53,127 bases of DNA. It comes from a virus. Taxonomy: Duplodnaviria > Caudoviricetes. Below are positions 30,373 through 45,935 of this stretch, piece by piece. The position numbers were made by a program, and so were the translations under genes. Every line of letters starts with the position of its first letter. Position 1 is the stretch's first letter. Below the pieces are notes generated by a model, which worked only from the letters and a program-made list of their open reading frames with translations, had not been told where the DNA came from and searched no databases. The stretch is taken from positions 1-53,127 of the IMG/VR virus record IMGVR_UViG_3300034170_000039; one strand, given 5' to 3'.

Positions 30373-30623
30373 GGCGCCACCCTCTTCGCGCATCTTTTGC
30401 AGCGATCCCAGTTGCCAGGCTCAAACATCGGCATCTTGTCGGTGCTGGCTGCAGCAATGCCGCAAAGCGAAAGCCAGTAGGTCGCACGGCCATGGCTCGT
30501 CAGAACCGCCAAGCCCTTCTGTTTCGTGAAGTAGTGCGCCTTCCCCGTAATTGGGAACATTGGTTTGAGCCAGCCTTTTGCGGGACTGCTCGCACCGCCA
30601 GTGATTTGCGCAATCTGGTTCAT
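30369..30623 (-). CDS. Hypothetical Zn-binding protein
   Basis: KAHYF...SLCG...RCKRC. Confidence 0.65.
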   Translation of the reverse strand: MNQIAQITGGASSPAKGWLKPMFPITGKAHYFTKQKGLAVLTSHGRATYWLSLCGIAAASTDKMPMFEPGNWDRCKRCAKRVAP

Positions 30624-31216
30624 GCTGCAGCCCTTTTCAGTTCTCTGGTCTTTGCCCGGTACTCGGCCTTGATGGCCTTGATCTCTTCCACGGTGTACTT
30701 GCGCACGCTCTGGTCGGATTCCAGTGCGTCGACCGCCTCCTGGCCAATGCGCGCGATCAGGCCAATCCGGTAGTCCACGGCGTTGCCGGATAGGAATCGG
30801 TTGTCCTGCTTGCTCTGTGCATGGCAGTTGCGCTCATCGAAGCGCAGGTGCGGCGCGGAGCCGACGCTGCGGTAATGGCCGGCATCTACTGCGTTGCCGC
30901 TCCAGTCCAATGGCTTGCCGCTGGAGATGCAGAGGTGACCGGCGGCCTGGTCCCGGGTGCGGATGTACTCGTTGAACGCCTGCTGAGCCTCGCGCATGTG
31001 GTCGCCGCGACTTTTCAGCGCCTCCTTTCGAACCTTGATGTCGGCGCGGCCAACCTGGGCCAGCGACTTGCGCGCCTTCACCTCGTTCACATGCTTGATG
31101 GCCAGGCCGCACTTCGGACTGCACACGGCCTGCCCGAGGCGCTGCGGGACGAATGAGGCCCTGCATGCTGGGTTCTTGCAGGTCTTGGGCTTGGGTTGTT
31201 TGGCGGGAAGGCTCAT
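30620..31216 (-). CDS. ninG: NinG/Rap recombination endonuclease
   Basis: QQAFNEYIRTRD, DAGHYRSVGSAPHLRFDERNCHAQ motifs. Confidence 0.92.
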   Translation of the reverse strand: MSLPAKQPKPKTCKNPACRASFVPQRLGQAVCSPKCGLAIKHVNEVKARKSLAQVGRADIKVRKEALKSRGDHMREAQQAFNEYIRTRDQAAGHLCISSGKPLDWSGNAVDAGHYRSVGSAPHLRFDERNCHAQSKQDNRFLSGNAVDYRIGLIARIGQEAVDALESDQSVRKYTVEEIKAIKAEYRAKTRELKRAAA

Positions 31217-31386
31217 GCGTCGCGCCCCCACAAAAACCCAACGAGGGCCATTGCATCCGCAATAGCTGCTACCGCCCAGAACGAGGCCGGTGCATCAAAC
31301 GGGCCTATTCCGGCCTGCTTCAGCACTGCGCACATTGCAATGACGAGGATGCACTGAATCATTAAAAAGATAGGGCCCTGGTTCAT
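31213..31386 (-). CDS. Small membrane protein
   Basis: MNQGPIF..., two hydrophobic segments, ATGA overlaps. Confidence 0.55.
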   Translation of the reverse strand: MNQGPIFLMIQCILVIAMCAVLKQAGIGPFDAPASFWAVAAIADAMALVGFLWGRDA

Positions 31387-31661
31387 GCCACCACCTCCCG
31401 CGACTTCTGCTGCTCGGGCGCGAAATCGCCTCGCAGGGGCATCAGGTTCTTCTGAGAGAAAAGCCAAACATCGCCACCTCCTAAATCAATGAAGGCTGAT
31501 AGAGACCCGTCTGCGGCACCGGTGTGGAGGCATCCGTATGCGTCGTACTCTTTCTTGGAGTCGATAAGCAGCTCTAGAACCTCCACGGCTTTGCCTATCA
31601 GAGATTTATCGCCACAATTTATGATCAGCGCCAGGTCGCCCGGCTTGAAGTTATGGCTCAT
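31383..31661 (-). CDS. Hypothetical protein
   Basis: FKPGDLALI...LMPLRGD motif common in Pseudomonas phages. Confidence 0.7.
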   Translation of the reverse strand: MSHNFKPGDLALIINCGDKSLIGKAVEVLELLIDSKKEYDAYGCLHTGAADGSLSAFIDLGGGDVWLFSQKNLMPLRGDFAPEQQKSREVVA

Positions 31662-32128
31662 GCGGCCTCCTTGCTCAGCAGATCGGTGAAGACGACGCCC
31701 TGGCCGGTGAAGTACGTGGCCATGCGGTCGGTGTACTGGACGCCCTGAGCGCGATTGAACAGGCTGGTCACCGGGAAGCCGTCAGGGCCGAACAAATGGC
31801 ACTCGCCCATCATGGCCAGCTTGGTTTCGTAGGGCAGATGACGCATGACCCGATACCACTCGGCCTGGAACCCGGCGTCCTCGTTCAGCAGGATCTGCAC
31901 GCCGAAGTGCAATTTGCAGTAGCGACGGGCGTCGGCCGCGTCGCCTATCTGGGTCATCTCGGCAATCCGCTTGTACATCGCGAACCACAGGGCGTTCTGG
32001 TCGAGGGTGCGGTCCTTGCCAGGACGAAGGGAGACCACCACGAACTTCTTGTCCCGGTACATGGTGGTCAGGCAGGTGATGGCCTCGGAGAGCTTGGCCT
32101 GGCAGTTGACGCTTATTTTGTCCGTCAT
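31658..32128 (-). CDS. NinB-like protein
   Basis: RTLDQNALWFAMY..IA motif, nin position. Confidence 0.7.
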   Translation of the reverse strand: MTDKISVNCQAKLSEAITCLTTMYRDKKFVVVSLRPGKDRTLDQNALWFAMYKRIAEMTQIGDAADARRYCKLHFGVQILLNEDAGFQAEWYRVMRHLPYETKLAMMGECHLFGPDGFPVTSLFNRAQGVQYTDRMATYFTGQGVVFTDLLSKEAA

Positions 32129-32442
32129 GGCTTCCTCCGGTCGTGGAAGTTTCCGCCACGGCGCTTGTACAGAGTGTTGACTTGCGAATCGGCGGCACGC
32201 CCCGCATCGCGCAGACTCACATCGGCGTTATCCGCGAAGCCCTTCCACACGACCTCATCCCCAGCTTTTCCAGAAAGGACCAGTAGCACTGCGGTGGGCT
32301 CGCTCTTGACGTCGTCAGCCTGAATCCACTTGGCGACGGTACGCAGGTACTCGGCGATCTCGTTGCGCTTGGCTTGCTCTCCAGCGACACGCCTGTTGTG
32401 CAGGCAGCGGGAGGCTGGGAACTGATGAATTTCGGCGCTCAT
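32125..32442 (-). CDS. Hypothetical protein
   Basis: ATGA overlaps in nin operon. Confidence 0.65.
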   Translation of the reverse strand: MSAEIHQFPASRCLHNRRVAGEQAKRNEIAEYLRTVAKWIQADDVKSEPTAVLLVLSGKAGDEVVWKGFADNADVSLRDAGRAADSQVNTLYKRRGGNFHDRRKP

Positions 32443-33155
32443 GACTGCTCTCCCTGGCCCAGGGCGGCGTCGACCGTCCAGTCCTTGTGCTTGGCGCGCA
32501 GGCGGCTCAGCTCGCCCGCCAACTTTGCTCGGCTCGATTCAAGCCCCTCCACCTCGGCCTTCAGCTCAGCATTCACCCGCTCGTAGGCTTCGTAGCCGGT
32601 CTTGAGGCCTGCGACTTCAGCGCGGAACTGGTCGCGCTCGATAAGCACAGATGTGGTCAGCATCGACTTAGAAGCGGCATTTGCGGCTCGGTAGGCACTT
32701 TCAAGGCGCTCGTTCTCGGCCTTGAGCTGGTCGCGCTCGGAAACTACCGTCTTTACACGGGATGGTAGGTCGTGGAATCCGTGGCGCGATTTAGGCTCTT
32801 CCGGGCCGCGCACCGCCACTGCGATTTCCCCGAGAAGAACGGACAGGGTGTCGCAAAGCTCGGTCGCCTCTTGATCGCTCTCACGCAGCCGCTCGTTCTC
32901 GGCGATCAGGGCCAGGACTGCAGCAGGGTTGGCGGCCGCGATGAAGTCAGCGTCCGGCCGACGGATAACCCCTAACGGGTCGCTTTCATAACTCCACTCG
33001 TACACCACTACATCCATGCCGGTGTGGGTGCCGTGCTCGTTCCAAATATCCTGAACAATCTCGAAGCCTTGAGTGCTGTCGACCTCCCCGCACACACTCC
33101 ATGGCCCTGGGGTCGCAGCCTTGGCCAGCCGCTTCAGTTCGGCGTTGTCGGTCAT
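32439..33155 (-). CDS. Ead/Ea22-like protein
   Basis: LKRLAKAATPGPW...DADFIAAANPAAVLALIAENERL. Confidence 0.8.
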   Translation of the reverse strand: MTDNAELKRLAKAATPGPWSVCGEVDSTQGFEIVQDIWNEHGTHTGMDVVVYEWSYESDPLGVIRRPDADFIAAANPAAVLALIAENERLRESDQEATELCDTLSVLLGEIAVAVRGPEEPKSRHGFHDLPSRVKTVVSERDQLKAENERLESAYRAANAASKSMLTTSVLIERDQFRAEVAGLKTGYEAYERVNAELKAEVEGLESSRAKLAGELSRLRAKHKDWTVDAALGQGEQS

Positions 33156-33481
33156 AGCTCAGCCTCATCATCAAAGTCAGACGGGGTTCCAGCCTTCGCC
33201 AGCGCAACAACCTTCTCGGCCCGCTCTACCAGCTCGGGGTACTGATCGTTCCAGTTCTGCTTGTAGGCCTTGGCCATCAGCTCTTCCAGCATTGCGAGCA
33301 TTTGCGGGGCAGTTCGGATCAGGTAGGCGTTGGCCCACGACTCTTCGGCGATCACGAACTTGATGCCGTTGTGGTCCATCGCGCCAATCGTGGCTATCTC
33401 AAGCGGCTCACCGTCTCGCTCTACGCTGATGCAGTAGTCCTGGCGATCTACCAGCCATTCTTCTTTTGTGTGATTGCTCAT
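33152..33481 (-). CDS. Hypothetical protein
   Basis: MSNHTKEEW...ANAYLIRTAPQML; ATGA overlaps. Confidence 0.65.
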   Translation of the reverse strand: MSNHTKEEWLVDRQDYCISVERDGEPLEIATIGAMDHNGIKFVIAEESWANAYLIRTAPQMLAMLEELMAKAYKQNWNDQYPELVERAEKVVALAKAGTPSDFDDEAEL

Positions 33482-33750
33482 GCCCGCTTCTCCCCTGCTT
33501 CTGCGATCACTGCCATGCGCTCCAACTTGCGCGCCTGGAGCCACGCTTCTGACATGCGATCTCGCTCGCTACCCTTGTCGACCCATTCCCAGACCGGTCG
33601 GCCGTTGCAGACCATGTAGGCGCGGTACATCTTGCTGTACTGCTGCTGGCGGATCTGGGTGACGCCGCGACCCTTCAGGTAGCGCTCGTCCCCGGCTTGC
33701 GGCTTTGGCTTGGTTGATGCTGTGCTGTATCGAATGCTGGTAACGGTCAT
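33478..33750 (-). CDS. Hypothetical protein
   Basis: Start MTVTSIR overlaps stop of P gene; GGAG RBS. Confidence 0.6.
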   Translation of the reverse strand: MTVTSIRYSTASTKPKPQAGDERYLKGRGVTQIRQQQYSKMYRAYMVCNGRPVWEWVDKGSERDRMSEAWLQARKLERMAVIAEAGEKRA

Positions 33751-34490
33751 GGCCGCTGCTCCTGAGTCTTGTTCTTGCCGAACTTGGCCATCAGCAGCTC
33801 GCGCGCTGACTTGCCGTCGGCCGGGATGCCTTGCTGAAGGATTCGCGCCTGGGTTTGTTGGTCGGCCAGCTCGTTGGCGAGTTCGAAGGCGGTCTTCTGG
33901 CTGTCGTGGCCAATACCGGTGAGGATCTTCCCGTCGAGCGGCTGGCCTTCCTGGGCGCGGCGGATCACCACGGCGTAGTTGTGATCGAAGCGCTGGCGAA
34001 GGCCCTTGTCTTCCTGCTTGGCGGAACGCAGGTCGAACAGCCCGGTGGCAACAGCCGCGATCTTGACGCCCTCGTGGCTGTAGACGCCCATCAATGCCTC
34101 CACCCATGCGTCAGCGCTCGCTGGCAGGCCGAACACCTCAGGTCCAGGCTTGCACCAGCCTATGAACTGGCCGACGCTTGGAGCGAACGGTGAACCGCTT
34201 TTCCGGCACTGCTCGATTCCATAACGGATCTGCTCCAGCGTGCGGATGCCGGCGGCCATAAACCCCATCGTCCAGTTGCGCATTGCGGCGGCCTTGGCCT
34301 TGTCGTCCGGCCATGCCTGCTTGTGCGCCGGGAAGATGGCCTGTAGCTGGCGGAACAGGCGCTCGACCACTTCGCCGGTGGCGTCATCCACTACACCGAG
34401 CTGGGTGCCGGTTTGTGCCGTGGCCTGATAAGGGGCCGAGGTGCCCAATGCCCGGGCAGCGCCGGGGATCATCTGAGTGACGTTCTTCAT
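33747..34490 (-). CDS. Replication protein P-like (helicase loader)
   Basis: LFRQLQAIFPA, GIRTLEQI, PFAPSVGQFIGWC motifs. Confidence 0.85.
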   Translation of the reverse strand: MKNVTQMIPGAARALGTSAPYQATAQTGTQLGVVDDATGEVVERLFRQLQAIFPAHKQAWPDDKAKAAAMRNWTMGFMAAGIRTLEQIRYGIEQCRKSGSPFAPSVGQFIGWCKPGPEVFGLPASADAWVEALMGVYSHEGVKIAAVATGLFDLRSAKQEDKGLRQRFDHNYAVVIRRAQEGQPLDGKILTGIGHDSQKTAFELANELADQQTQARILQQGIPADGKSARELLMAKFGKNKTQEQRP

Positions 34491-35212
34491 AGGTCATCAC
34501 TCGTATCGGTGCGCCACGACTGGTCGTAGAAGTCAGGGCCGTTGCCAACAGTCCTGCCGCCCGCAACAACCTTCTCCGGGAACAGCCCGGTCCAGCCATT
34601 GCTGATGGACTGGTTGATCACGGCGTCAGCATCGTGGTGCCCTGCCAGGGTCTTGGCTTGCTTGGCGCAGGTGGTGGCGGTCAGTGGCTTCTTGATCTCG
34701 CGGCGGTGCTGGCACCATTCAGCCCAAACCTGCTCGCTAACGTTGGCCGGCTTGCAGGTGAGCGGGTCGAACTTTGGCGCCTTCTTTTTTCCCGCAGAGG
34801 GAGCGTCAGCGACCGGCTGTTCTGCTGGTTCAATGACTGGTTCAAAAGAGTGGCTGGTTCTGGTGCTTTCTGGGCCTACAGGGGGTGTAGGCTGTGTGCC
34901 TACACCTGTGCTTTTTGGGCCTACAGGGGTGCTGTTTGTGCCTACACCCCCAAGGGTCAGAAAATATAGGTTCGACGAGTTGCCTTTCGGACCATCGCGA
35001 TTCTCAATTTTCAGCAGGTTCTGCTCTTCCAAGTGCTTGATATGACGACGAACAGTGCTACGGTCGATCTCGCACTGATCGGCAATATGCTGGTAGGACG
35101 GCCAGCACTCACCCATGTCGTTGGCGTTATCGGCCAGCTTGATCAGCACCAGCTTGCGCAGTGGGTTGCCGACCTTGGTCTTCATGGCCTTTACCATCAA
35201 CTCCATACTCAC
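34487..35212 (-). CDS. Replication initiator (O-like, HTH)
   Basis: KLVLIKLADNAND.GECWPSYQHIA..CE HTH; WAEWCQHRRE...SISNGWTGLF; internal iterons. Confidence 0.88.
   Translation of the reverse strand: MSMELMVKAMKTKVGNPLRKLVLIKLADNANDMGECWPSYQHIADQCEIDRSTVRRHIKHLEEQNLLKIENRDGPKGNSSNLYFLTLGGVGTNSTPVGPKSTGVGTQPTPPVGPESTRTSHSFEPVIEPAEQPVADAPSAGKKKAPKFDPLTCKPANVSEQVWAEWCQHRREIKKPLTATTCAKQAKTLAGHHDADAVINQSISNGWTGLFPEKVVAGGRTVGNGPDFYDQSWRTDTSDDL
34863..34946. repeat. Replication origin iterons (four 18-bp repeats)
   Basis: GTGCTNTNTGNGCCTACA-like units at 34863, 34887, 34908, 34929 inside the initiator gene. Confidence 0.8.
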
Positions 35213-36006
35213 GCTGCACCCCGCATAGCCTTGTCATGGGTGAACAGGCCGTCCCAGGTCTTTTTCATTGGAAGTTCGCCGGCCAGGTACAGGTCGTACA
35301 GGCGTGCGGCGCCCTTCTTCAGCAGGACTGGCGTGTAGGAGATGAACGGGTCTTTGCCGTGCGGGGTGACTTCGACCTGGTGCTCGGTCATGTACTTGTC
35401 GCGGGCATACGAGCCAACACGGTGACGGGTGCCGGACTTGCTCTCGTTGTAGAGCCAGCTACGCGATTCAAGGTAATTACCCACCTGCATCACGTTGACC
35501 CCATTGAGTCCCTTGCAGAATTGGGTATGGGTCATGCCTTCCTTGAACAGGTTCTCCAGGGAATGGATCTTCGTGGCCTGCTGCTCGACCTGGGCGGTGA
35601 GCATCAAGCGGGCCTTTTCAGACTCCATGGCGATCTGCAGGATTTCGATGGTGGAGAGCTCAGGCGTTTCCAGCGCATTAATCTTGGCGACAACATTTCG
35701 GCGAACCGCTTTCGACTCTCGCATGGAGACCAGCAGGCACTGATCCTTGGTGAGCATCAGCCCTTCGGACGCCGGACCACGCTGATTCCTTACTACGAAA
35801 GTTTCGTAGTATTCGCCTTCAAGCTCATCACGGCACCGGGCCGTAAAATCATTGCGGCGAACTTCGCTTTCGCCAAACTCGGTGCGCGCAGAGTTCACGA
35901 GTTCGAGCAGATCAAAACTGCTCATCTTGTCTCGCGCCACGTTTTGCGATTGCAGAAAACGTGGCGCGGATTCGTTGGTGTTGACGACTGATTGGGGAAT
36001 AGGCAT
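35209..36006 (-). CDS. Antirepressor (KilAC/ANT C-terminal domain)
   Basis: MSSFDLLELVN, MRESKAVRR, YTPVLLKKG..RLY motifs. Confidence 0.8.
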   Translation of the reverse strand: MPIPQSVVNTNESAPRFLQSQNVARDKMSSFDLLELVNSARTEFGESEVRRNDFTARCRDELEGEYYETFVVRNQRGPASEGLMLTKDQCLLVSMRESKAVRRNVVAKINALETPELSTIEILQIAMESEKARLMLTAQVEQQATKIHSLENLFKEGMTHTQFCKGLNGVNVMQVGNYLESRSWLYNESKSGTRHRVGSYARDKYMTEHQVEVTPHGKDPFISYTPVLLKKGAARLYDLYLAGELPMKKTWDGLFTHDKAMRGAA

Positions 36007-36041
36007 TATTCGCTCCAGACATTAGTTGTATGTGCTGCACG

Positions 36042-36070
36042 AAAAGCCACCATTGCCCGGTGGCTTTTTT
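36042..36070. terminator. Bidirectional terminator (tR1-like)
   Basis: AAAAGCCACC/GGTGGCTTTT. Confidence 0.65.
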
Positions 36071-36133
36071 GTGCGCCTGATTTACTGCTTGGTTGTTTCA
36101 CTGGCAGATCCTCAATAGTCCCTGAGGGGCTAA

Positions 36134-36322
36134 TCAGCCCTTTCGTCCTATGGAAGCGACGTTGCTCCGGCTCTTTGGTGGCCGGGTCATTCGATCAAGC
36201 GCCCGGTTCATAATTGTTGCGGCCAGCTCTTCTGGGGTTACGCCGTTGCGTCTGGCTAGCAGCTCCAGATCGGCGACTCCCTGCCAGTCGAGCTGGATTT
36301 CCAGCGGTTTTCTTTCAGGCAC
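36134..36322 (-). CDS. Small DNA-binding-like protein
   Basis: AGGAGG RBS, GTG start; RHH-like pattern. Confidence 0.6.
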   Translation of the reverse strand: MPERKPLEIQLDWQGVADLELLARRNGVTPEELAATIMNRALDRMTRPPKSRSNVASIGRKG

Positions 36323-36340
36323 AGGGCCTCCTGGGCCACT

Positions 36341-36529
36341 TCAGGCCACGTCTGTTTTCGCGTTAAGCTCTTCCATCATCTGGTTCAGGCCGCGCTCGAG
36401 GATTTCCCTGGCGAGTACTGCTTTCTGTGTGCGCTGAAAACGAGCCATCGCTGTCAGCAGGTCGTCGGCCACCTCGTCGAGGCGGACCTTTGTGGGCTTG
36501 TCGTGCATATGGCTTGGGTCGAAGTGCAT
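36341..36529 (-). CDS. Small regulator in CII position (RHH-like)
   Basis: AAGGAG RBS; KVRLD...QKAVLAREIL; directly after cro. Confidence 0.6.
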   Translation of the reverse strand: MHFDPSHMHDKPTKVRLDEVADDLLTAMARFQRTQKAVLAREILERGLNQMMEELNAKTDVA

Positions 36530-36560
36530 CGTTATTGCTCCTTTGAGCAGGCAAGGTGGG

Positions 36561-36764
36561 TTAAGCGGCTGTTCTTTTGGCGGACTGAACTGGAAATGGG
36601 CGCAGCTCTTCGGCGGTGAAGGAGCCGTCGCAGTGCTCGATCACGTACACGTCGCGGCCAACACGGAGAGCCTTATTCAAGGCTCCCTGAGTCATGCCGA
36701 GCAGTACGGCAGTCTTTGTCTGCCCATTTGTTTCGGCGAATTTGGATAGCGGGATTCGGCTCAT
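36561..36764 (-). CDS. cro: Cro repressor
   Basis: GQTKTAVLLGMTQGALNKAL...AEELRPFP, lambda Cro-like; divergent from cI. Confidence 0.9.
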   Translation of the reverse strand: MSRIPLSKFAETNGQTKTAVLLGMTQGALNKALRVGRDVYVIEHCDGSFTAEELRPFPVQSAKRTAA

Positions 36765-36794
36765 AGCCATTCCTCCATTGGCGTTCATGCTCGC

Positions 36795-36863
36795 ATTATT
36801 ATCTCCCTTGGAGATACTTTGCAACTCCAATGGAGATGGTTAACTATCTCCGGTGGGAATATT
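36795..36863. promoter_or_regulatory. OR operators (three 17-bp sites) with pR/pRM
   Basis: TATCTCC-N3-GGAGATA-type palindromes at 36800, 36822, 36845; TTGCAA..AATAAT on minus strand. Confidence 0.85.
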
Positions 36864-36871
36864 CTTCATAA

Positions 36872-37663
36872 ATGACTAAAGAAAGACGCCAGTTGCTTGA
36901 TTGGGAGCGGGAAGAGTGCGCGGCCTTGAAAAAGGCCATTGCGGACTACAACGCCGCGCGCCCGAAAGACAAAAGGCTTACCCAGGATGAGATTGCACAC
37001 GCGGTAGGCATGAGTCAGGGGACTCTTGGAAGCCACCTGAATGGACATAGGCCTCTAACTCAGAAACTGGCCGTTTCAATGGCCGAAATGCTTGGAGTGC
37101 CTATAGGGGTATTCAGTGAAAGGATTGAGGGCGACATAGAGCGGATCGCCTCTCGGCTTCCTGATTTTCGCCCATCTCACCGAGAGTTCGAAGATATGCG
37201 CACCCCTCCGCGCAGCTTCGATCTGAAGGATGAGCCCAGCTACACCGGCGTAATGCAGCTAACTGCGCGCGGCTCGACCGGGAGTGGCGACGACAACCCT
37301 CACGTCGAAATTCGCGGCGTGATGGCGTTCAAATCGGCATGGCTGCGCGCCAACAACCTCAACCAGAAGCACCTTGACGTGATCTACGCCAACGGCCACA
37401 GCATGGAGCCGACCATCAATGATGGAGACGTGCTACTGGTGGATGAGTCGAAGGTGGAACCGAAGGACGGCCAGATCTTTGCGCTGCAGAGCGAATCGAA
37501 AGGCACGATCGTGAAGCGCCTGGTGAAGTCCGACTTCGATGGCTGGATCATTCGAAGCGATAACCCGGACAAGGCGCGCTACGGTGACGAGACGCTGCGA
37601 GATGGGGAGATAAACGAGGTTCGCATCATCGGGCGCGTCGTTTGGCGCGGCGGGATGCTGTAA
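36872..37663 (+). CDS. cI: CI repressor (HTH + S24 peptidase)
   Basis: LTQDEIAHAVGMSQGTLG HTH; GHSMEPTI and IVKRL catalytic Ser/Lys; IIGRVVW. Confidence 0.95.
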   Translation: MTKERRQLLDWEREECAALKKAIADYNAARPKDKRLTQDEIAHAVGMSQGTLGSHLNGHRPLTQKLAVSMAEMLGVPIGVFSERIEGDIERIASRLPDFRPSHREFEDMRTPPRSFDLKDEPSYTGVMQLTARGSTGSGDDNPHVEIRGVMAFKSAWLRANNLNQKHLDVIYANGHSMEPTINDGDVLLVDESKVEPKDGQIFALQSESKGTIVKRLVKSDFDGWIIRSDNPDKARYGDETLRDGEINEVRIIGRVVWRGGML

Positions 37664-37710
37664 TCGACGAGAAGATGGGCTCTACTGATCTTAAATAACA
37701 GAAGGGATTC

Positions 37711-38043
37711 GTGGTGAGTGACAATAAAACAAACAATGTTTCTGGTGAAACAGAGTCGGAGAATACGCCCGAGCAGGATCGAGCGCTCACGGTCCCTGGG
37801 AGGGATCTGGTGGAGTTCCTGAACAGGGTTGCGCCTGACAATAAGTGCAGCTTCTGCAATCGAGGCGATTACAACGTGATATCTGCACCCACAAAGGGCG
37901 GTATCGCAGGAGTCGTCGCAACACCCGTCCCCAACGTTCAACACTTGGGGATATGGTTTTTCGTAGCATCATGCAATGTCTGTGGACATACGGCGCTGTT
38001 CAACTCGAAAGAGGTCCTTGATGCTATGGACAGGAATGATTGA
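37711..38043 (+). CDS. Zinc-ribbon protein
   Basis: CSFC...CNVCG; downstream of cI. Confidence 0.75.
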   Translation: MVSDNKTNNVSGETESENTPEQDRALTVPGRDLVEFLNRVAPDNKCSFCNRGDYNVISAPTKGGIAGVVATPVPNVQHLGIWFFVASCNVCGHTALFNSKEVLDAMDRND

Positions 38044-38519
38044 TGCGCATTGCACAAGGCTCACCCTATGATTTTATGGGCGAATTTTCCTCATTTTTAG
38101 AGGTTGTTGAGAAAAATGTTGGGGGATTCTACTACATCTCGAACATTGACCCTTCTTCAATGTCTGAAGACTCGCTGCCCCTTGACAGGGTGTATACTGC
38201 CGATACACCAAAGGATTTGATAACCATCATGAGCGCATTTCGAAAAGATCTGTTTATGTCTGTGACTCTGCCACTCTTAGGGTCGGCGGTAGGCGCGCTG
38301 GCGCTTGTGTGGGCGGCTTATACTCATATTGATTCGAAACTAGACGCTGTAAGATCTGATGCCTCGAATAGCCTTGACCATCTGGGCGATACGCTAAGGG
38401 TCGAGCTGCGAGCAGACCGTGATGCTCGAGCAAAAGAGTTCGAAGCTATACGCGTTGAAATGAGAGAGGACAGGAAGGATACGAGAGATGCTCTTAAAGA
38501 GCTCATAAACCGCTCATAG
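38040..38519 (+). CDS. Single-TM coiled-coil protein
   Basis: Overlaps stop of zinc-ribbon gene; central TM, charged C-terminus. Confidence 0.7.
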   Translation: MMRIAQGSPYDFMGEFSSFLEVVEKNVGGFYYISNIDPSSMSEDSLPLDRVYTADTPKDLITIMSAFRKDLFMSVTLPLLGSAVGALALVWAAYTHIDSKLDAVRSDASNSLDHLGDTLRVELRADRDARAKEFEAIRVEMREDRKDTRDALKELINRS

Positions 38520-38534
38520 CTTAGGCTGTTCTCT

Positions 38535-38566
38535 AAAAAGAAACCCGGACCAGAGCCGGGCTTCTT
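38535..38566. terminator. Terminator between convergent genes
   Basis: CCCGG/CCGGG stem flanked by A- and T-rich tracts. Confidence 0.55.
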
Positions 38567-38575
38567 GTTTCTGCC

Positions 38576-38917
38576 CTACTCAGCCTTTCGTATATCCACG
38601 CCTGATACGTAGTCTGCGGCGCGGCGCGTCGCCATTTCCTGACATTTCACAACCCCGCCAAGCCCCCGCGCCATCTCCCAGCCATCCATGTACAGCTTGT
38701 TGACGGCGATTCCCTTGATGCCTTTAAAGGTTTTCACGGCGTCGCCAACCCGCAGCCAGCCACGAAAATCTCCCGCGTTCATACCTGCCTTGAAATCCGT
38801 ACAGCCTGATGCCCATATGAACCTGGCATCCTCGTTGGCATCCTGCTGCGTATAGCCGAAAGCCAGGATCGGCATGCAAAGCAGCGATAAAGCACCCACC
38901 ATGAAAATCCGATTCAT
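38576..38917 (-). CDS. Exported protein
   Basis: Signal peptide MNRIFMVGALSLLCMPILAFG; GGAG RBS. Confidence 0.7.
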   Translation of the reverse strand: MNRIFMVGALSLLCMPILAFGYTQQDANEDARFIWASGCTDFKAGMNAGDFRGWLRVGDAVKTFKGIKGIAVNKLYMDGWEMARGLGGVVKCQEMATRRAADYVSGVDIRKAE

Positions 38918-39013
38918 TGCTCACTCCACTCGCTGATTGAGCAGATTGTAGCAGCCCTTCTTCGCCAATCCTGCTCGCCGTTGAGCGGGCTTTTTATCGC
39001 CATCCATAAAAAT

Positions 39014-39056
39014 TATCTCCATTGGAGTTGACATGAATATCTCCATAGGAGATATT
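39014..39056 (+). promoter_or_regulatory. OL operators (two 17-bp sites) and pL
   Basis: Operators at 39014 and 39038; TTGACA(39028)-17-GATATT(39051). Confidence 0.88.
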
Positions 39057-39105
39057 AGCCCCATCGAGTCACCCAACAGGGACTCGCCAGGGCCTCAGGG
39101 CCCGC

Positions 39106-39117
39106 CGCTCTTTAACA
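39106..39117 (+). promoter_or_regulatory. boxA antitermination element
   Basis: CGCTCTTTAACA consensus boxA about 45 nt after pL, preceded by a GGGCC/GGCCC hairpin. Confidence 0.8.
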
Positions 39118-39377
39118 GCACGGGAACCTCGCAGATCGATCCCCAGCAATGGGCACAGGGCGAGCAATAAATTCGATCTCCACGCCAGCTCTGGAACTGG
39201 CCGTACTCCCACATGTGAGTACGCGAAACCACGCACACAAACTGGCAATGCATCGAACACGAAATGTGCGGCGCCGGTGAGAGACGACTCGGACCGATGC
39301 GTGGTGGAGATGAAACACCCACAGATTTACTGATGCCGCTTCTATGAGGCGGCATTGGAAATCAACGGAGACTGACC

Positions 39378-39506
39378 ATGACCATGACATTCGACAGCAT
39401 CACCCAGGCAGAGCAATTCAAGTTGGAAATGACCGGTCTGGGCTACACGGCCTACGTGCTGAGCATGAACGCAACTTTCCACCAGGTGCGCTGCTGGAAG
39501 CGCTAA
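39378..39506 (+). CDS. 42-aa early protein
   Basis: GGAG RBS; MTMTFDSITQAEQFKLEMTGLGYTAYVLSMNATFHQVRCWKR. Confidence 0.55.
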   Translation: MTMTFDSITQAEQFKLEMTGLGYTAYVLSMNATFHQVRCWKR

Positions 39507-39857
39507 CTGCCCGATCCTCTCTATGAGAGCGCATCGGGGTGTGATTTGGAGTTTGCCTCGGCGGATCAGGGGCGCCCTGCGTGCGGGGTGGGGTCGACTA
39601 GGTAGCGCTGCCGAAATCGACGTAATTCTTTTGGGTTCGAATCCCTGCCAAATCATACCCCGATGCGGACGACCACCACACACCGCGCAAAGCGGCCCCC
39701 TGCATCGCACCTATGACGAATCACCCCGGCCCGACTCCAGCAGAGTGACCGGGTACAGATGGCTCCCTGCTGATTCAGGTGGCCATCTGTTATCTTCACA
39801 ACTGCCGCTTAAAACCCCTAGGCGGCAATTGGAAGGGAACAGAACTGAGGACGGATC

Positions 39858-40031
39858 ATGACCAAGAAAGAGTTGCAGGCCTTGGCGCCTGAGCTGCTAG
39901 CGGCTCTTGAGGAGCTGTACAAGGAGTTTAAAGAGACGCAAGAGGCTGAGTACAACACCTGGGAGCCTGACGCCATTGGCTACCCCGCAGCGCTCGAAGC
40001 CAAACGCCTGATCGACCTCGCCAAGCAGTAA
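39858..40031 (+). CDS. 57-aa acidic early protein
   Basis: GAGG RBS; MTKKELQALAPELLAALEELYKEF...; followed by terminator. Confidence 0.65.
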   Translation: MTKKELQALAPELLAALEELYKEFKETQEAEYNTWEPDAIGYPAALEAKRLIDLAKQ

Positions 40032-40049
40032 CCGGCAACGATTCACAAC

Positions 40050-40072
40050 AGCCCGCACTTAGCGGGCTTTTT
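40050..40072 (+). terminator. tL1-like terminator
   Basis: AGCCCGC/GCGGGCT plus TTTT. Confidence 0.75.
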
Positions 40073-40140
40073 CATGGGTTTCACAAATGCCTCTAGACCC
40101 CCTGGAGGTATTTGGAAGCCCTATCCACTGGAGTAGCGAT

Positions 40141-40335
40141 ATGAACCTAACAGATAGCAAGCAAGACGACCGCATCAGAACCGCGCTCCGCAATGCTGAT
40201 AAGTCGGGTCGGCTGAGTGTCGTTGCGGCCGTTATCGGCATTGCCGGCGGCGAGAAAGAGTTGCGCAAAATCATGAATAGCACCGGCGAACTTTCCATCA
40301 TGGATCGCGGCATGCTGTGGATTCACCTGAACTGA
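40141..40335 (+). CDS. 64-aa early protein
   Basis: GGAG RBS before MNLTDSKQ. Confidence 0.65.
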   Translation: MNLTDSKQDDRIRTALRNADKSGRLSVVAAVIGIAGGEKELRKIMNSTGELSIMDRGMLWIHLN

Positions 40336-40536
40336 TTAACCCTCTCCTTGCACGTCAGCCAGACGAAAATTGGCCCGATCCTTTCCTTGGGGAGACTCGT
40401 ATAGGAAAGCAGCCCGCACATGCGGAACCACCCTTCTCGCCTCTACCCGTCAGCACTCACCCCGCGCCCATCGGCAACCAGCGGGAGGCATGAGTGTTGA
40501 GCGAATACAGGTGAACCAACGAATGGAGTTCCCGAA

Positions 40537-41124
40537 ATGCCAAAGATTTTGGATGTGATCAAAACCAAGCAGGGTCAGATGTTCCTGCTGCTGGATGAAA
40601 TGCCGCGCCGTGTATACGAGCGCACCGGCAACCTGCTTGTTTCGAGCCACGATGGCTTCTTCGACTTCATGAAGATTCAGCCGGGCACCCGTGATGCGTT
40701 TGCGGGCCGATCTTTCACTATCAATCTCGCTGACGGCTCGACCCTGGAGTGCAAAGGCCAGGTCTGGGATTGCGGCGGTGATCCTGGTGTCCCCACGCTT
40801 CATGCCGGCATTGGCACCCGTGAGTCACTGGAGAGTTGCTACGTGTTCAGTGGCGCCACCGTCGCGAGGTCACTGGTAGAGGCTTGGCTGTCCGAGAACA
40901 AGCCGAGCAGCCGTTACTACAAGTACGACAAGAGAGAGACCGTCGAGTACTGGGAAGTCATTTACCGCACCGAGGGATGGGGGAATCGAATTTCTCCGGC
41001 TCGGGCCCGGAAGCTCCGCAAGCGCGGCGCGACCATCTGGCGCGTAGATGGCAGGCCAACCTGGAGCGCTCGCTTCGAGAAGCGCAAAGCTCAAATCCTC
41101 GCGGACATTGCCGCAGACGCCTAA
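40537..41124 (+). CDS. Hypothetical protein
   Basis: 195 aa, GGAG RBS. Confidence 0.75.
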   Translation: MPKILDVIKTKQGQMFLLLDEMPRRVYERTGNLLVSSHDGFFDFMKIQPGTRDAFAGRSFTINLADGSTLECKGQVWDCGGDPGVPTLHAGIGTRESLESCYVFSGATVARSLVEAWLSENKPSSRYYKYDKRETVEYWEVIYRTEGWGNRISPARARKLRKRGATIWRVDGRPTWSARFEKRKAQILADIAADA

Positions 41125-41145
41125 CCCCAAACACTGGAGGTCGCC

Positions 41146-41376
41146 ATGAGCGATTGGATCAAGTGCAGCGACAGGCTGCCGCCACTGGCTGAAAGGCTTG
41201 AAGCGCCATGCGAAGTAGGCGGAAGGGTCATCCCGCCGCTGAATCGCTCGGTCGAGGTGATCGTCTTCTCGAATGGCGGCGTTTTTAGCGCCTCTGTCGA
41301 GTGGTTCGATGGCGAGGAAGCTCCTACCAGCAGCATCACCCACTGGCGGCCACTCCCTGCCCCGCCCACCGAATAA
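41146..41376 (+). CDS. DUF551-like protein
   Basis: WIKCSDRLP...ITHWRPLPAPP. Confidence 0.85.
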   Translation: MSDWIKCSDRLPPLAERLEAPCEVGGRVIPPLNRSVEVIVFSNGGVFSASVEWFDGEEAPTSSITHWRPLPAPPTE

Positions 41377-41395
41377 CGCCACCCTGGAGGTGATC

Positions 41396-41833
41396 ATGAA
41401 CGCAGCATTGAAGATATGCCAGGAGCGTTTCGACGCTCAGTTGCCTCCAGATGTCAGCGAGGCGAGCCCTGAACAGGATTGGCTTGAACACTCGGCTGAA
41501 CAGTTGGTGTGCGGCGTCGACATCAAGTGGAAGCGCCGATACGGCCGACCACGAGTCGTTACCTTTGACCAGTACTGCACCTACCTGCAAGGCATCCTGA
41601 ATCATCGCCAGGAAGAAGGCCTGGACGAGCGCGATTCACTTGCCCGGCTGTTCCTGTCGTCGATCCTTGGCAGCCAGTCAGATTCACGCGGCCATGCGGC
41701 CGACTTGATCGGCCAGCAACACCCAATCGCAGCCGCCGAGAAGGTGGCTATAGACCTGCTTAGACCCTACGCCGCCGACGCGGTGGCAGCAGAGCGGGAA
41801 GCGGCCGAAGACGACGTGGATGGTGACCTATGA
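41396..41833 (+). CDS. Hypothetical protein
   Basis: GGAGG RBS before MNAALKICQ. Confidence 0.7.
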   Translation: MNAALKICQERFDAQLPPDVSEASPEQDWLEHSAEQLVCGVDIKWKRRYGRPRVVTFDQYCTYLQGILNHRQEEGLDERDSLARLFLSSILGSQSDSRGHAADLIGQQHPIAAAEKVAIDLLRPYAADAVAAEREAAEDDVDGDL

Positions 41834-42015
41834 GCGCGCACATCCTCATCGACGAAGCACTCGAAAGCCTCACGCATGCCGCCAGCACGGCGGACGAGGC
41901 GCTAATTGTTCAGCGGATGATCGCCCAGTTCTTGATTGACGAAACGATCACCCTCAAGGAATTCGACCACTACTGCGCACGCCTCAACAAGGTCTCGCGC
42001 AAGGAGGCTGCATGA
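41830..42015 (+). CDS. Hypothetical protein
   Basis: ATGA overlaps. Confidence 0.65.
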   Translation: MSAHILIDEALESLTHAASTADEALIVQRMIAQFLIDETITLKEFDHYCARLNKVSRKEAA

Positions 42016-42206
42016 CCACTTCGCCAGTAAAAACGATCGTAGACGAGCAGCTCGACGATATTGAGCGCCGTATTGCCATCCTTGGTTTTGGCCTTCCCTT
42101 TAACGAACTGATCGGCCGCAAGCGGGAAGAGCTGGTGCGTGACCTGCCGCAGCGCCTGGCACCGACCATGAAGGGCGGGAGGATTGCAGTGAGGGTTCGG
42201 CCATGA
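42012..42206 (+). CDS. Hypothetical protein
   Basis: AGGAGG RBS, ATGA overlaps. Confidence 0.65.
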   Translation: MTTSPVKTIVDEQLDDIERRIAILGFGLPFNELIGRKREELVRDLPQRLAPTMKGGRIAVRVRP

Positions 42207-42442
42207 CGATGATTTGCGGCAATTGCAACCAGGCCGGCATTCGTTGGGTTGGCCCATTCAGTAACCTGACCCACACCGAATGCCCACACTGCGGCGGCAC
42301 CAACTGCCAACTAGCTGACCAGTCAGATCAGGCGGAGGAGGAAGTCGAGGAGGAAGTTGAGTGCGGGTGCGGGCGTAAATCCGGCCCTCCGAACTTTGAT
42401 GATGGTCGCTACTACTGCGGAAGCCAGTGGTGTATGCCATGA
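42203..42442 (+). CDS. Cys-rich Zn-finger protein
   Basis: CGNC, CPHC, CGC, C...C clusters with acidic linker. Confidence 0.65.
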   Translation: MTMICGNCNQAGIRWVGPFSNLTHTECPHCGGTNCQLADQSDQAEEEVEEEVECGCGRKSGPPNFDDGRYYCGSQWCMP

Positions 42443-42555
42443 CCGCCCACCAGCGCACCCGGCGCACGCTCATCTGGCGCGGATCTTTCTCTGCCCTCTC
42501 CCTCTGCACGTTCCTGATGTTGCTCGGCGCCCTCGCTGATCGAATCACCTCCTAA
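42439..42555 (+). CDS. 38-aa membrane micropeptide
   Basis: MTAHQRTRRTLIWRGSFSALSLCTFLMLLGALADRITS; ATGA overlap. Confidence 0.55.
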   Translation: MTAHQRTRRTLIWRGSFSALSLCTFLMLLGALADRITS

Positions 42556-42599
42556 CCAACACCTTCAATCGCTGCGAGCATCGCGGCAAGGATTCCCAC

Positions 42600-43746
42600 G
42601 TGTCCGCAAATCAGCAAGTCATCACCATTGACGACATCAGCGCCGACCATCTACATCGCCGGCGGCCTGGGTCAGTTCTTCGACGCGGTGCAGGCCGAGG
42701 TCGCCGGTGAGGTGCCCGATCTGGCCAGCCGCAAGGGCCGCGAGCGTATTGCCTCGCTGGCCGCGAAGGTCAGCAAGTCGAAGGCAGCAGTCGAGAAGCC
42801 GGGCCGCGACTACCTAAAGCGCCTCAAGGAAATGCCGAAGGTGGTCGAGGCTGAGCTCCGCGAGTTTGTCACCAAGATGGACAACCTGCGCGACGCTACC
42901 CGCAAGCCGCTGACGGACTGGGAGCAGGCAGAGCTGGCCCGCACCGACAAACACGTCGACGGTATCCAGAGCATCAAAGACCTGGCATTTTTCGAAGAAT
43001 CGCCGAGTGCTACCCGCGTCGCCAAGATCATCGCCGACCTGGAGCTGATCGCGATCAACGACACATGGGAAGAGTTCTTGGCCGAAGCCGCCCAGGTGAA
43101 GGATCAGACCCTGACCAAGCTGCGCGGCATTCTGGCCGAGCGCACCCAGTACGAGGCCGAACAGGCCGAGCTGATCAGGCTGCGGGCCGAGGCAGAAGCA
43201 CAGGCCCAGCGCGACCGCGATGCAGAGATTGCACGGGTAGCGGCTGAGCAGGCCCAGCGCCAGGCAGAAGAGCGAGCACAAGCCGAGCGTGACGCAGCGG
43301 CGCGCCGCGAACAGGAGTTGCTGGATCAGGCCGCAGCAGCGCAACGGGCAACCGAACAGGCCGCCCGTGATGCAGAGGCCGCCGCCGAACGCCAGCGCCT
43401 GCAACTACAGCTCCAGGCGGAACAGGCAGAGCGCCATGCCGCCCAGGCCAAGGCCGACCAGTTGGCAGCCGAGCAGCGCGCCGAGCAGGAGCGTCTTGCC
43501 TCCATACGCCGCCAGGAAGAAGCCGTAGAGCGGGCTCGACTGGATGAGGTTGCCAGAGCCAACGCAGCGGCAGATGAAATCCTGCGCCAGCAGAAGGCTC
43601 GCCAGGATGACGTAGCGCACAAGTCGAAAATCCTGGGCGAAGCCAAGCAAGCCTTGATCAGCATGAACATCAGCGAAGAGCTGGCCAAGGCCATCGTCCT
43701 AAAGATTGCCCGGGGCGAAGTGCCGAACGTGTCCATTCAATTTTGA
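42600..43746 (+). pseudogene. Coiled-coil (TolA-like annotated) protein, frameshifted near 5' end
   Basis: RBS-supported GTG at 42600 is out of frame with the 372-aa body. Confidence 0.6.
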
Positions 43747-43756
43747 GGTAATCAGC

Positions 43757-44518
43757 ATGTCCACCGAAATCATCATGCCTCCGGAGCAGCGCCGCCAGTT
43801 GGCCGCGCCAACGGCAATGGATACCAGCATCATGGCAGTCATCAGCCGCGCTGCTGCTGACCCAACCTGCGACATCGAAAAGATGGAGCGCCTGCTGGCT
43901 ATGCATGAGCGCATGCAGGCCAAGGATGCTGAGCAAGCATTCAACGCAGCGATGGCCGAGATGCAGTGCAACATCCCCACAGTCTTCGAAGGGGCGGTAA
44001 ACCTGCACACCGGCAACTCCTACGCCACTCTGGACCACATCACCCACACCCTAAAGCCGATCATGCAGCAACACGGGTTCGCCATTACCTTCAAGGTTGA
44101 AAACGCGGACAAGTTGATCAGCGTCACGGGGATATTGATGCATCGAGGTGGGCACCGCGAGCAAACGACCATGACCCTTCCGACTGATATCGGAAAGGGC
44201 CGCAACGACGTCCAGGCGGTCGGATCGTCCACCACCTACGGCAAGCGCTACGTCATGTGCGCTCTTCTCAACATCACAACAGGCGAGACCCGTGACGATG
44301 ACGGGCAGTCAGCGGATGGCTCAGATACGGATGACATGCGCGCCCAGGTCGTCGCCGACATCCTTGAGCGTGTCGGGCAAACCACGACGCCGGAAGAACT
44401 GAAAGATGTCTGGCAGGCGAGCCTAAAAGTCCTGCAAGCGTCGGGAGACTCCAACGGGTATTCCACGGTGAAGACCGCAGTAACTGTCCACAAAGCAAAG
44501 CTGGAGGCGCCTCAATGA
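43757..44518 (+). CDS. ERF-family single-strand annealing protein
   Basis: YATLDHI, QAVGSSTTYGKRY, DDDG motifs. Confidence 0.92.
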   Translation: MSTEIIMPPEQRRQLAAPTAMDTSIMAVISRAAADPTCDIEKMERLLAMHERMQAKDAEQAFNAAMAEMQCNIPTVFEGAVNLHTGNSYATLDHITHTLKPIMQQHGFAITFKVENADKLISVTGILMHRGGHREQTTMTLPTDIGKGRNDVQAVGSSTTYGKRYVMCALLNITTGETRDDDGQSADGSDTDDMRAQVVADILERVGQTTTPEELKDVWQASLKVLQASGDSNGYSTVKTAVTVHKAKLEAPQ

Positions 44519-45282
44519 TCATTGTGAATTGCACCCAAGGCTCACCGGAATGGCTGCAGGCCCGCGCCGGGGTCATCACCGCAAGCATGTTCAGCACCGC
44601 CCGCTCCAAAGTTAACGGCCTGAACGCCCAGCAGAAGAAATATGTCGACGCCATGCTTGCCGGAAAGGGCGAGACGAAAGCGATGGAGTTGGCAGGATAC
44701 AAGGCCTGCCCAAAGGCCGAGGTTGTTCAGCGAGCCCTGGACGGCGAGAAGGTCGGCGAGCCATCCAACGCCGCGCTTACCTACGCCTTTGAGCTGGCGG
44801 TTGAGCGGATCGGCGGTGCGCCGCTGGATGGCGGGTTCGAAACTTGGCAGATGCGCCGAGGGCATGAACTGGAGCCAGAAGCCCGCATGGAGCACGAAAT
44901 TCAGACGGGCCTGATCGTCACACAGGTCGGGCTGGTGAAGACTGACGATGGCGTGTTCGGCGCCAGCGCAGACGGATTCATCGGCGAGGACGGCGGTGCT
45001 GAGTACAAGTGCTTCCTGGCCCCTGACAAACTCCGCGCCTTCCACATCGACAACGATGCCAGCGAAGTCATTGACCAGGTGCAGGGCTGTATGTGGATCA
45101 CCGACAAAAAGTGGTGGCACATCGGGATGTACTGCCCACTGCTCAAACCGGTCGGCCGCCAGCTCTGGTGGAAAGAGTTCAAGCGTGACAACGACTACAT
45201 CGAAAGCCTTGAGGAAGACCTGTGGGAATTCAAGCTGCTGGTCGACGGGTATGAGGCGGCGCTCAGGAGTAAAGCAGCATGA
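44515..45282 (+). CDS. YqaJ/lambda-exonuclease family nuclease
   Basis: QGSPEWLQARAGVITAS, RGHELEPEAR, GASADG, EYKC, QVQGCMW. Confidence 0.92.
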   Translation: MIIVNCTQGSPEWLQARAGVITASMFSTARSKVNGLNAQQKKYVDAMLAGKGETKAMELAGYKACPKAEVVQRALDGEKVGEPSNAALTYAFELAVERIGGAPLDGGFETWQMRRGHELEPEARMEHEIQTGLIVTQVGLVKTDDGVFGASADGFIGEDGGAEYKCFLAPDKLRAFHIDNDASEVIDQVQGCMWITDKKWWHIGMYCPLLKPVGRQLWWKEFKRDNDYIESLEEDLWEFKLLVDGYEAALRSKAA

Positions 45283-45872: not shown

Positions 45873-45935
45873 CCCAGCAACGAAAACGTCAAACCTGGCT
45901 CGCACTGCCGGCCAGCGGAATAGAAGAGGTAGGCT

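Follow-up and report, generated by a model that had tools for sequence, protein, structure and literature searches.

IMGVR_UViG_3300034170_000039 is a viral record (Duplodnaviria; Caudoviricetes) of 53,127 nucleotides, all of which were analysed and are referred to as the window; by PHROG scans of 65 open reading frames (ORFs), its gene content is that of a lambda-like temperate Pseudomonas phage. Directly behind the cI-type repressor gene of this phage lie two small overlapping genes, here called A and B, which encode a zinc-ribbon protein and a protein that crosses the membrane once and ends in a charged helix, respectively. A first-pass annotation, made from the sequence alone, had singled the pair out as a candidate new defence system in the position that rexA and rexB occupy in phage lambda. 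Comparison with related loci places A and B in a wider family of two-gene modules linked to prophage repressors, for which a role in the exclusion of other phages is proposed.

The immunity region and the genes behind cI

The repressor gene (36872–37663, + strand) encodes a helix-turn-helix (HTH) domain and an S24 autopeptidase (HTH_3, 7e-07; Peptidase_S24, 4.4e-16), matches the transcriptional repressors of phrog_4 (2.1e-37) and is presumed to be the first gene of the lysogenic operon; the cro gene (36561–36830, − strand; Pfam Cro, E 3.4e-20) is divergent from it. Three ATCTCCnnnGGAGAT-type palindromes with a spacing of 22–23 bp lie between cro and cI (36801–36860) and are designated OR, for the right operator, while two more, spaced by 24 bp, form the left operator, OL (39015–39056, +; operator copies at 39015–39053), where they overlap a promoter-like TTGACA-17-GATATT facing the early-left genes. 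At up to two mismatches the 15-base palindrome has five matches in the whole window, all of them in these two clusters, and the same sites were also recovered as repeat families D1–D3. Their number alone is not significant, five matches having been reached in 8 of 100 shuffles; the clusters are called OR and OL because they fall in the two intergenic places where operators are expected, not because of the count. Between them, OR and OL bracket cI, A, B, and one convergent gene (38576–38917, − strand).

Gene A (37711–38043, +) begins 47 nt after cI. The spacer (37664–37710, +) contains GAAGGGA, a ribosome-binding-like motif, and consensus and palindrome scans found no terminator-, operator- or promoter-like site in it; a terminator-like site on the + strand was likewise not found by the consensus scan between 36725 and 38544, and behind B there is a stem-loop followed by a T-rich stretch, a terminator that also serves the convergent gene (38544–38570; scan site 38544–38560). 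The first-pass description of two overlapping genes directly behind cI, the second one ending at 38519, with no terminator before them and one after, is borne out by these scans, as is their lower GC content (0.514 for A and 0.476 for B, against 0.572 for cI and 0.583 for the window); at third codon positions (GC3) the values are 0.69 for cI, 0.57 for A, and 0.47 for B.

The stop codon of A (TGA, 38041–38043) is overlapped by the start of B, either by 1 nt, if B starts at ATG 38043, or by 4 nt, if it starts at TTG 38040, and the two genes are translationally coupled. The TTG is a possible start, but the ATG is preferred because homologues of 158–162 aa align from that first residue and cover 99%; B (38043–38519, +) then encodes 158 aa. 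One database record of the window's own B begins later and has 147 aa.

Ten sequencing runs hold part of the window; one of them is recorded as RNA, a peat metatranscriptome (X1) with 84% of the sampled words, the contigs of which were mapped on 29001–49000. One X1 contig of 1839 nt covers 36892–38707 with 0 differences and no gaps; it begins 20 nt inside cI, includes the whole of A and B and ends past the terminator. Coverage by X1 is low over 29001–35003 and moderate in parts of the region from 40 to 48 kb, contig depth being unable to rank genes. Co-transcription of A and B with cI fits the 47-nt gap, its lack of a terminator- or operator-like site and the spanning RNA contig, which is consistent with, but not proof of, one cI-A-B transcript; we infer that in lysogens the pair is expressed from the cI promoter.

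The product of gene A is an acidic protein of 110 aa (pI 4.85) with the CxxC...CxxC arrangement already seen in the first pass, at residues 46–49 and 88–91. In the AlphaFold model (pLDDT 71) it has a disordered tail (residues 1–16), two helices (20–40), a core of a four-to-five-strand sheet bearing both zinc knuckles (C46/C49/C88/C91) and a C-terminal helix. A clustered protein database holds nine relatives of A, and all 20 aligned relatives keep the four cysteines unchanged, as do all 39 members of the wider set described below; a label as nucleic-acid binding, which one relative carries in one source, is disfavoured because A is acidic. Against five related loci, dN of A is 0.17–0.62 with dS saturated in all five pairs; for B, dN/dS is 0.07–0.13 in the three of five related-locus pairs that give a value, the others being saturated in dS. 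From these values and the conserved cysteines it follows that A and B are protein-coding and under purifying selection.

Neither A nor B has a fitting family in Pfam, NCBIfam, PADLOC, or the Protein Data Bank (PDB). At E ≤1 Pfam returned for A only Zn_ribbon_13 (0.032) and ApoM (0.13), and no Rex family. A match of A to phrog_4293, a family of unknown function, has an E of 3.3e-4 and covers only residues 84–108; the same PHROG is matched by 34 of the 39 wider-family members at E ≤0.001 (best, 9.4e-12), and on these sequence grounds A is a distant member of phrog_4293. The earlier statement that no known family could be recognised stands for Pfam, NCBIfam, and PADLOC, and has to be amended for A by this weak match. 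Fold searches with A gave no convincing likeness to a PDB entry: the best VIA-align Z was 4.4 in the wide search and 4.2 upon re-ranking, and the top Foldseek rows, which show the N-terminal zinc domain of MqsA (E 0.11–0.4; TM-score 0.18–0.38), are below threshold, MqsA not being among the top VIA-align rows listed. Sequence-profile searches of the PDB returned nothing for A, and the ESM Atlas gave unnamed clusters only (0.93), which were not used.

B had been described as a protein with a single transmembrane segment and a charged tail, and this description is upheld: there is one Kyte-Doolittle hydrophobic segment (residues about 70–88; transmembrane segment taken as about 70–90), the AlphaFold model shows one unbroken helix (58–157) behind a region of low confidence (1–57), and the charged C-terminal helix (97–158) includes a 30-residue window in which 63% of the residues are charged. 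Among the 21 relatives of B in the clustered protein database, the mean identity is 26% in the acidic N-terminal region, 51% in the transmembrane segment, and 68% in the tail; the juxtamembrane motif MSAFRKDLF is near-invariant (77% mean identity across the 21). Pfam offers only OsmC for B (E 0.3) and no family of the RexB type with four transmembrane helices, and the leads from the ESM Atlas are sub-threshold (≤0.84; Mu releasin DUF2730 at 0.76) and were not used. The possibility that B is the i-spanin (Rz) or holin of the phage was considered and rejected, as B matches no spanin or holin PHROG and is not in the lysis cassette; the phage's own lysis genes stand elsewhere.

The orientation of B in the membrane is suggested by two related loci (L007 and L027), in which the partner of A has a B-like N-terminal part (motifs YDFM... 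and N.D.S..., by eye) followed by a different end with two transmembrane segments; this pair is flanked by basic residues and there is no charged tail. Because of the two-segment, basic-flanked architecture of these partners, the N-terminal region of B is placed in the cytoplasm; its charged helix, judged from the charge and these same relatives, would be on the periplasmic side. A variable N-terminal region in the cytoplasm suits a docking role, in which A and B would make contact; the predicted complex of A with residues 1–75 of B (score 0.01, mark 0.32) speaks neither for nor against binding.

A module family with exchangeable membrane partners

Loci closely related to the pair were drawn from viral contigs, from one named genome and from phage Aurca01; wherever the source of relatives of A and B is named, the name is Pseudomonas. 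The order in these loci is repressor gene, A, B, and terminator throughout. The gap between cI and A is 22–92 nt, and at 11 of the 13 loci inspected the stop of A overlaps the start of B, as TGATG or TAATG; A and B are 2 nt apart in L010, and in L015 a divergent zinc-ribbon gene replaces A. Twelve of the 13 have a stem-loop of the form GCCCGGCC...GCCGGGCTT 3′ of B or of the gene in its place; the exception is L007, where a further gene follows. The repressors ahead of the pair differ in sequence type, with Peptidase_S24 present in 14 of 14 tested.

Two of the loci reveal what is carried along. Beside nadC on the chromosome of P. lactucae (L001) there is no repressor gene, and the last codons of one are kept before A; in the P. 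syringae phage Aurca01 (PP179334; L020) a remnant of the 3′ end of another cI lies between the phage's own cI and A. Because of these remnants the mobile unit is taken to be the cassette of A, B, and terminator, sometimes with the 3′ end of a repressor gene; the cassette moves among phages with different repressors. In Aurca01 the A homologue (3432–3770, 112 aa) is unannotated and lies between cI and an annotated gene for 170 aa. Megablast with 36500–39000 gave no match in the phage collection, in which tblastn found nothing for B and only Aurca01 for A. A search of genome contigs with the B alignment confirmed 0 of 281 pattern matches, though relatives of B exist in NCBI genomes, which marks a limit of this method.

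Further small genes accompany the cassette in some loci. One, between the repressor gene (or its remnant) and A, is present in L009 (4612–4899, 95 aa) and L001 (5670–5948, 92 aa), the products sharing the motif KKPNQQLRR and having no Pfam match; another, downstream of the cassette in three loci (L004, 3875–4132; L005, 1467–1724; L010, 2594–2845), encodes a small membrane zinc-ribbon protein of 83–85 aa with two hydrophobic segments and a C-terminal CxxC...CxxC.

Beyond these close relatives, the profile of A matches 119 clusters at E ≤0.001 among 1.84 billion representative proteins, nearly all of them of 80–145 aa. Of 401 Pseudomonas genomes searched, 23 encode an A-family gene, as do 4 of the 400 in a class-wide sample (one genome unscored). 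Escherichia phage PHB10 and Yersinia phage vB_YenM_30.14 each have a distant member as the next gene after a repressor or regulator, and distant zinc-ribbon relatives together with partners are also found in three betaproteobacterial genomes; the PHB10-type module had no megablast match in 5,426 complete E. coli genomes.

The neighbourhood of the A family was tabulated for 39 loci (from Pseudomonas, E. coli and Yersinia phages, and others), six having been dropped: L005, which is the L004 cassette on a cut contig; L021, the same place as L001; L035 and L045, in which A was not resolved; L050, a second identical copy in one genome; and L002, without a zinc ribbon. The latter, from a Binatia metagenome-assembled genome, had been a candidate relative of A and is spurious, its 42-residue match being devoid of the cysteine pairs. 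Directly upstream of A stands a Pfam-confirmed S24 repressor gene in 24 of the 39 loci, and in one more a single small gene lies between the two. HTH-only regulators are found upstream in two loci, the cI remnant alone is left in L001, an S24-like ORF (by eye) lies three genes upstream in L024, and in ten loci, several of which are short, no repressor was seen in the ~1.3 kb upstream of A.

On the other side, a gene for a protein with a predicted transmembrane segment starts within about a dozen bases of the A stop in 31 of the 39 loci, and probable membrane partners are present in two more (L001, with a hydrophobic stretch below threshold, and L034, cut by the contig end). The partner is soluble in L026, and four A-family genes (L022, L023, L040, L042) have none. 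In L028 a single protein of 216 aa comprises a zinc ribbon, a coiled coil, and a C-terminal transmembrane helix and matches both phrog_4293 and a partner PHROG; judged by this domain content, it is a natural fusion of the two functions. Longer fused forms of A (229–2000 aa) were not found, which is weak evidence, and three multi-stretch matches (589–1469 aa) were left out. Two of the partnerless genes have neighbours of their own: in L023 the lone A-family gene follows the repressor gene after a gap of 2 nt, and in L042 a CsrA/RsmA-like ORF of 70 aa (by eye; about 1240–1460) overlaps the start of the A-family gene.

By eye, the membrane partners are of at least four types, i.e., that of the window, an "ITREEL" type (coiled coil, then transmembrane segment), a "MEARVAxLE" type, and a type with two transmembrane segments. 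The window type has no relation to the ITREEL type (hhalign probability 0.4%), and the partners are spread over several PHROGs of unknown function, with one weak match to a holin family (phrog_689, E 1.8e-4); across the module family the partner is swapped between non-homologous types. A search that started from the ITREEL type yielded 26 loci, including Duganella, Chromobacterium, and Pararobbsia, with an A-family gene just upstream of the partner in 16 and an S24-type gene in 18 (home-made profile). Co-occurrence of the two genes at other loci had been set beforehand as one point on which the first-pass proposal could fail, and it is found from either side (31 of 39 and 16 of 26). Of the other genes before the ITREEL partner, one encodes a CxxC...CxxC protein and one is unrelated; in eight of the 26 loci (L052, L056, L057, L061, L063, L064, L066, L071; about 2050–2470 in each) a protein of 75–115 aa without paired cysteines (helical by eye) replaces the zinc ribbon, often behind an S24 repressor, and looks like an alternative first gene of the same module.

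From their sequences, these loci are best described as a combinatorial module behind prophage repressors, in which a single-pass coiled-coil membrane protein is preceded by a small soluble one, in most cases a zinc ribbon of phrog_4293. Soluble-plus-membrane prophage modules behind repressors were already known; what is new here is the repressor-linked family of zinc ribbons with membrane partners, and a search of the open-access literature (PMC, bioRxiv) found no description of a zinc-ribbon protein paired with a single-pass membrane protein behind cI.

Known exclusion systems and the role of A and B

In lambda, cI, rexA, and rexB lie between the operator regions, and the slot is expressed in lysogens. 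Few regions allow expression in every lysogen to be predicted from location alone, and that behind a prophage repressor is one of them; RexAB and related exclusion systems have come from it, and here it contains a pair of no known family. Like RexAB, A and B form a two-gene unit behind the repressor gene and between operators, with the soluble protein first and the membrane protein second; they stand behind cI, in the immunity region and presumably in the repressor operon. By analogy, both systems would be expected to share a logic in which a cytoplasmic sensor activates a membrane effector. The two are not related in sequence and no RexA is among the rows listed for A in the fold searches; at about 280 aa, the DNA-binding RexA is also more than twice as long as A, an acidic zinc ribbon of 110 aa. 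Soluble-plus-membrane pairs by the repressor are reportedly also carried by the mycobacteriophages Sbash (gp30/31) and Butters (gp30/31), where they are said to be expressed from the prophage, to exclude heterotypic phages and to have multi-pass membrane proteins; they would resemble A and B in layout and in their place near the immunity region, and differ in the hosts. The membrane proteins RexB and RexBpp have four transmembrane helices according to section 8 of PMC12894663, whereas B has one and a long charged helix. RexApp and RexBpp of P. putida prophage P1 are described, in the part of PMC12894663 that deals with them, as a working abortive infection (Abi) system downstream of a cI-like repressor gene.

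A second system with similar components is Rip1 (ring interacting pore 1), which is prophage-borne; gp37 of Escherichia phage HK446 corresponds to its chain in PDB entry 9oox (E 2e-106). In the sequence of gp37 a hydrophobic helix at the N-terminus is followed by a coiled coil and, at the C-terminus, by a C4 zinc ribbon; the L028 chain likewise combines a zinc ribbon and a coiled coil with a helix for insertion into the membrane. The portion of PMC13434031 concerned with its mechanism describes Rip1 as a pore former that assembles around rings of the invading phage, either small-terminase or portal, so one small protein can be both sensor and pore. Homology between Rip1 and the pair was not detected by hhalign (probability 0.7% with the A family and 0.1% with the B family) or in a BLASTP comparison with the fused L028 protein (E 4); 9oox, although present in the sequence library, is absent at E ≤10 from five PDB profile or sequence searches (alignments A3, A4, A5, and A6, and L028), and it is not among the Foldseek and VIA-align rows listed for A, whose model has a pLDDT of 71, the presence of 9oox in the fold libraries being unconfirmed. 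Rip1 also differs in its reversed domain order and in being one polypeptide where the window has two genes (only L028 is fused). Its gene lies between N and an anti-restriction gene in HK446 and between terminase genes in P. aeruginosa, as the part of PMC13434031 on its genomic context has it. On this comparison of sequences, Rip1 appears to be an analogue built from the same parts, with no demonstrable kinship. Phrog_4293, although matched by A, is without an assigned function and so offers no explanation for the pair.

Two observations concern the slots themselves. In HK446 a hypothetical protein of 134 aa, gp39 (L077, 7183–7587), is encoded directly behind a LexA-family cI with a 4-nt overlap, i.e., in the slot of A and B. 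An ORF of 229 aa in the window (23504–24190, +) was considered as a gene in the Rip1 slot and discarded, being Ser/Arg/Leu-rich and without a PDB match and looking antisense to a real gene.

With these systems as models, A and B are most likely an exclusion or abortive-infection system expressed in lysogens, in which the zinc ribbon senses or gates and the membrane protein executes; to this reading, which leans on analogy, we give about an even chance. A would act as a soluble cytoplasmic sensor or regulator, by protein–protein contact rather than nucleic-acid binding, while B would be anchored in the inner membrane, its variable N-terminal region meeting A in the cytoplasm and its charged helix standing on the far side. 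Infection by another phage would cause A to release or trigger B, which would then either oligomerise and damage the membrane, in the manner of Abi systems, or block DNA entry at the envelope, in the manner of superinfection exclusion; of the two, membrane damage seems more likely. The operator-bracketed position, the co-occurrence in both directions, the fusion, the mobility of the cassette, purifying selection, the swapping of partners, and the patchy distribution all argue for exclusion. The first-pass picture of a defensive sensor with a membrane effector is therefore in keeping with position, pairing, and layout, its defence and effector parts drawing on the analogy with RexAB, RexABpp, and Rip1; as a hypothesis, "candidate new defence system" is justified, except that the pair is not unique to this phage and belongs to a wider family.

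Several points weigh against an exclusion function. No homology ties A or B to defence: the PADLOC check that had been recommended was run (PADLOC-DB 2.0, models to 2023) and gave 0 families at E ≤1 for both, 0 families for five other A-family proteins, and only coiled-coil noise for partners (E 1e-3 to 1e-4). The slot behind cI also houses morons of many functions. A may stand alone or use a non-membrane partner, because four of the 39 loci are partnerless and the partner in L026 is soluble; the zinc ribbon is not obligatory, because eight of the 26 partner-type loci have a non-zinc protein instead. The topology proposed for B draws on charge and on relatives with two transmembrane segments, and the X1 contig is silent on strand, on ends, and on whether a single molecule is represented, carry-over of DNA being possible. 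Finally, two genes of P. putida prophage P1, PP_3897 and PP_3898, lie directly behind the cI-like gene, between it and rexABpp, and section 7 of PMC12894663 reports no sensitisation to two phages upon deletion of either; if PP_3897 and PP_3898 belonged to the family of A and B, this would be a negative result for those two phages.

If the pair does exclude phages, a new sensor-plus-membrane-effector design would be added to those already known, phrog_4293 and several unnamed PHROGs would gain a function, and a natural set of swapped partners would be at hand for studying how small membrane effectors are triggered. Phage work with plant-associated pseudomonads is concerned as well, the pair being present in their prophages (e.g., P. 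syringae phage Aurca01). A further-reaching version of the exclusion reading, in itself rather doubtful, is that the modules form a combinatorial prophage immune class, in which the phrog_4293 zinc ribbon would recognise a structural or assembly protein of the invader and switch on an interchangeable pore-forming membrane partner; such a class would be the two-gene, mix-and-match counterpart of Rip1, located in the repressor operon and arming every lysogen.

The overlap and translational coupling of the two genes, with the small soluble protein first, and the combinatorial shuffling of small proteins and membrane partners would also suit a toxin–antitoxin system, which the first-pass annotation had entertained as well. 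B would then be a small membrane toxin, holin-like or depolarising, and A its antitoxin; the prophage would be stabilised by addiction, with any effect on other phages a by-product. The top Foldseek rows of A, with the toxin-binding N-domain of MqsA, and the weak holin match of one partner of another type point the same way; every such hint to a fold or family is below threshold, though, including that from Foldseek (E 0.11 at best), the best VIA-align Z being 4.4. Moreover, A lacks a DNA-binding domain with which it could autoregulate, the scan shows no promoter-like site belonging to the cassette, which seems to rely on the cI promoter, and partnerless A-family genes exist, all of which makes an addiction module an unlikely explanation.

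That the A family is tied to self-cleaving S24 repressors (24 of 39 directly, in Pseudomonas, Yersinia, and other hosts) could be understood if the pair served the control of lysogeny or induction, be it by modulating repressor cleavage, by coupling the state of the envelope or membrane to induction or by restraining lysis functions, and the lone A-family gene behind the repressor gene in L023 would agree with such a task. However, the cassette is dispensable, an A-family gene being present in only 23 of 401 Pseudomonas genomes; its GC content is below that of the backbone, as in imported cargo; and upstream of A there are HTH-only regulators in some loci and no repressor seen in 10 of 39 (within ~1.3 kb, several of the loci being short). 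RexABpp, as characterised in the relevant part of PMC12894663, is an instance of other cargo behind a cI-like gene, and partners as non-homologous as those compared by hhalign (0.4%) are more in line with an arms race than with regulatory circuitry that is conserved. A regulatory role is thus improbable. Less probable still is that A and B serve lysogenic conversion by altering the host envelope (receptor, pili, secretion, or stress tolerance) and do not sense phages directly: as a membrane protein, B has a conserved charged helix that is probably on the periplasmic side, and the phage has other envelope-directed cargo (the acetyltransferase-like gene at 326–1435 and the secreted-protein gene beside B), but most partner types put the coiled coil on the cytoplasmic side and a short tail outside, and the constant pairing with a cytoplasmic zinc ribbon would be left unexplained.

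Other genes of the window

The gene convergent to B inside the immunity region (38576–38917, −) is an ORF of 113 aa with a signal-peptide-like N-terminal segment; Pfam, PHROG, PADLOC, and NCBIfam gave no match for it, and it may be a second piece of lysogen-expressed cargo. In the early-right operon, an anti-repressor (Ant)-like gene (35209–36006, −; phrog_63, 6.1e-38) is flanked on one side by two small genes that come after cro and on the other by the O-like replication gene.

The PHROG scans further assigned an integrase gene (51806–53044), genes for Erf-like and exonuclease recombination proteins, a DNA methyltransferase gene, O-like and P-like replication genes, as well as terminase, portal, and tail genes. 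The lysis set, which is separate from A and B, comprises a holin (25295–25714), an endolysin (1940–2470), and an Rz-like spanin (1458–1940). The lysis genes are adjoined by a gene resembling O-acetyltransferases and O-antigen acetylases (326–1435, +; phrog_3333, 4.3e-38; GC3 0.44), which is likely to be a lysogenic-conversion gene.

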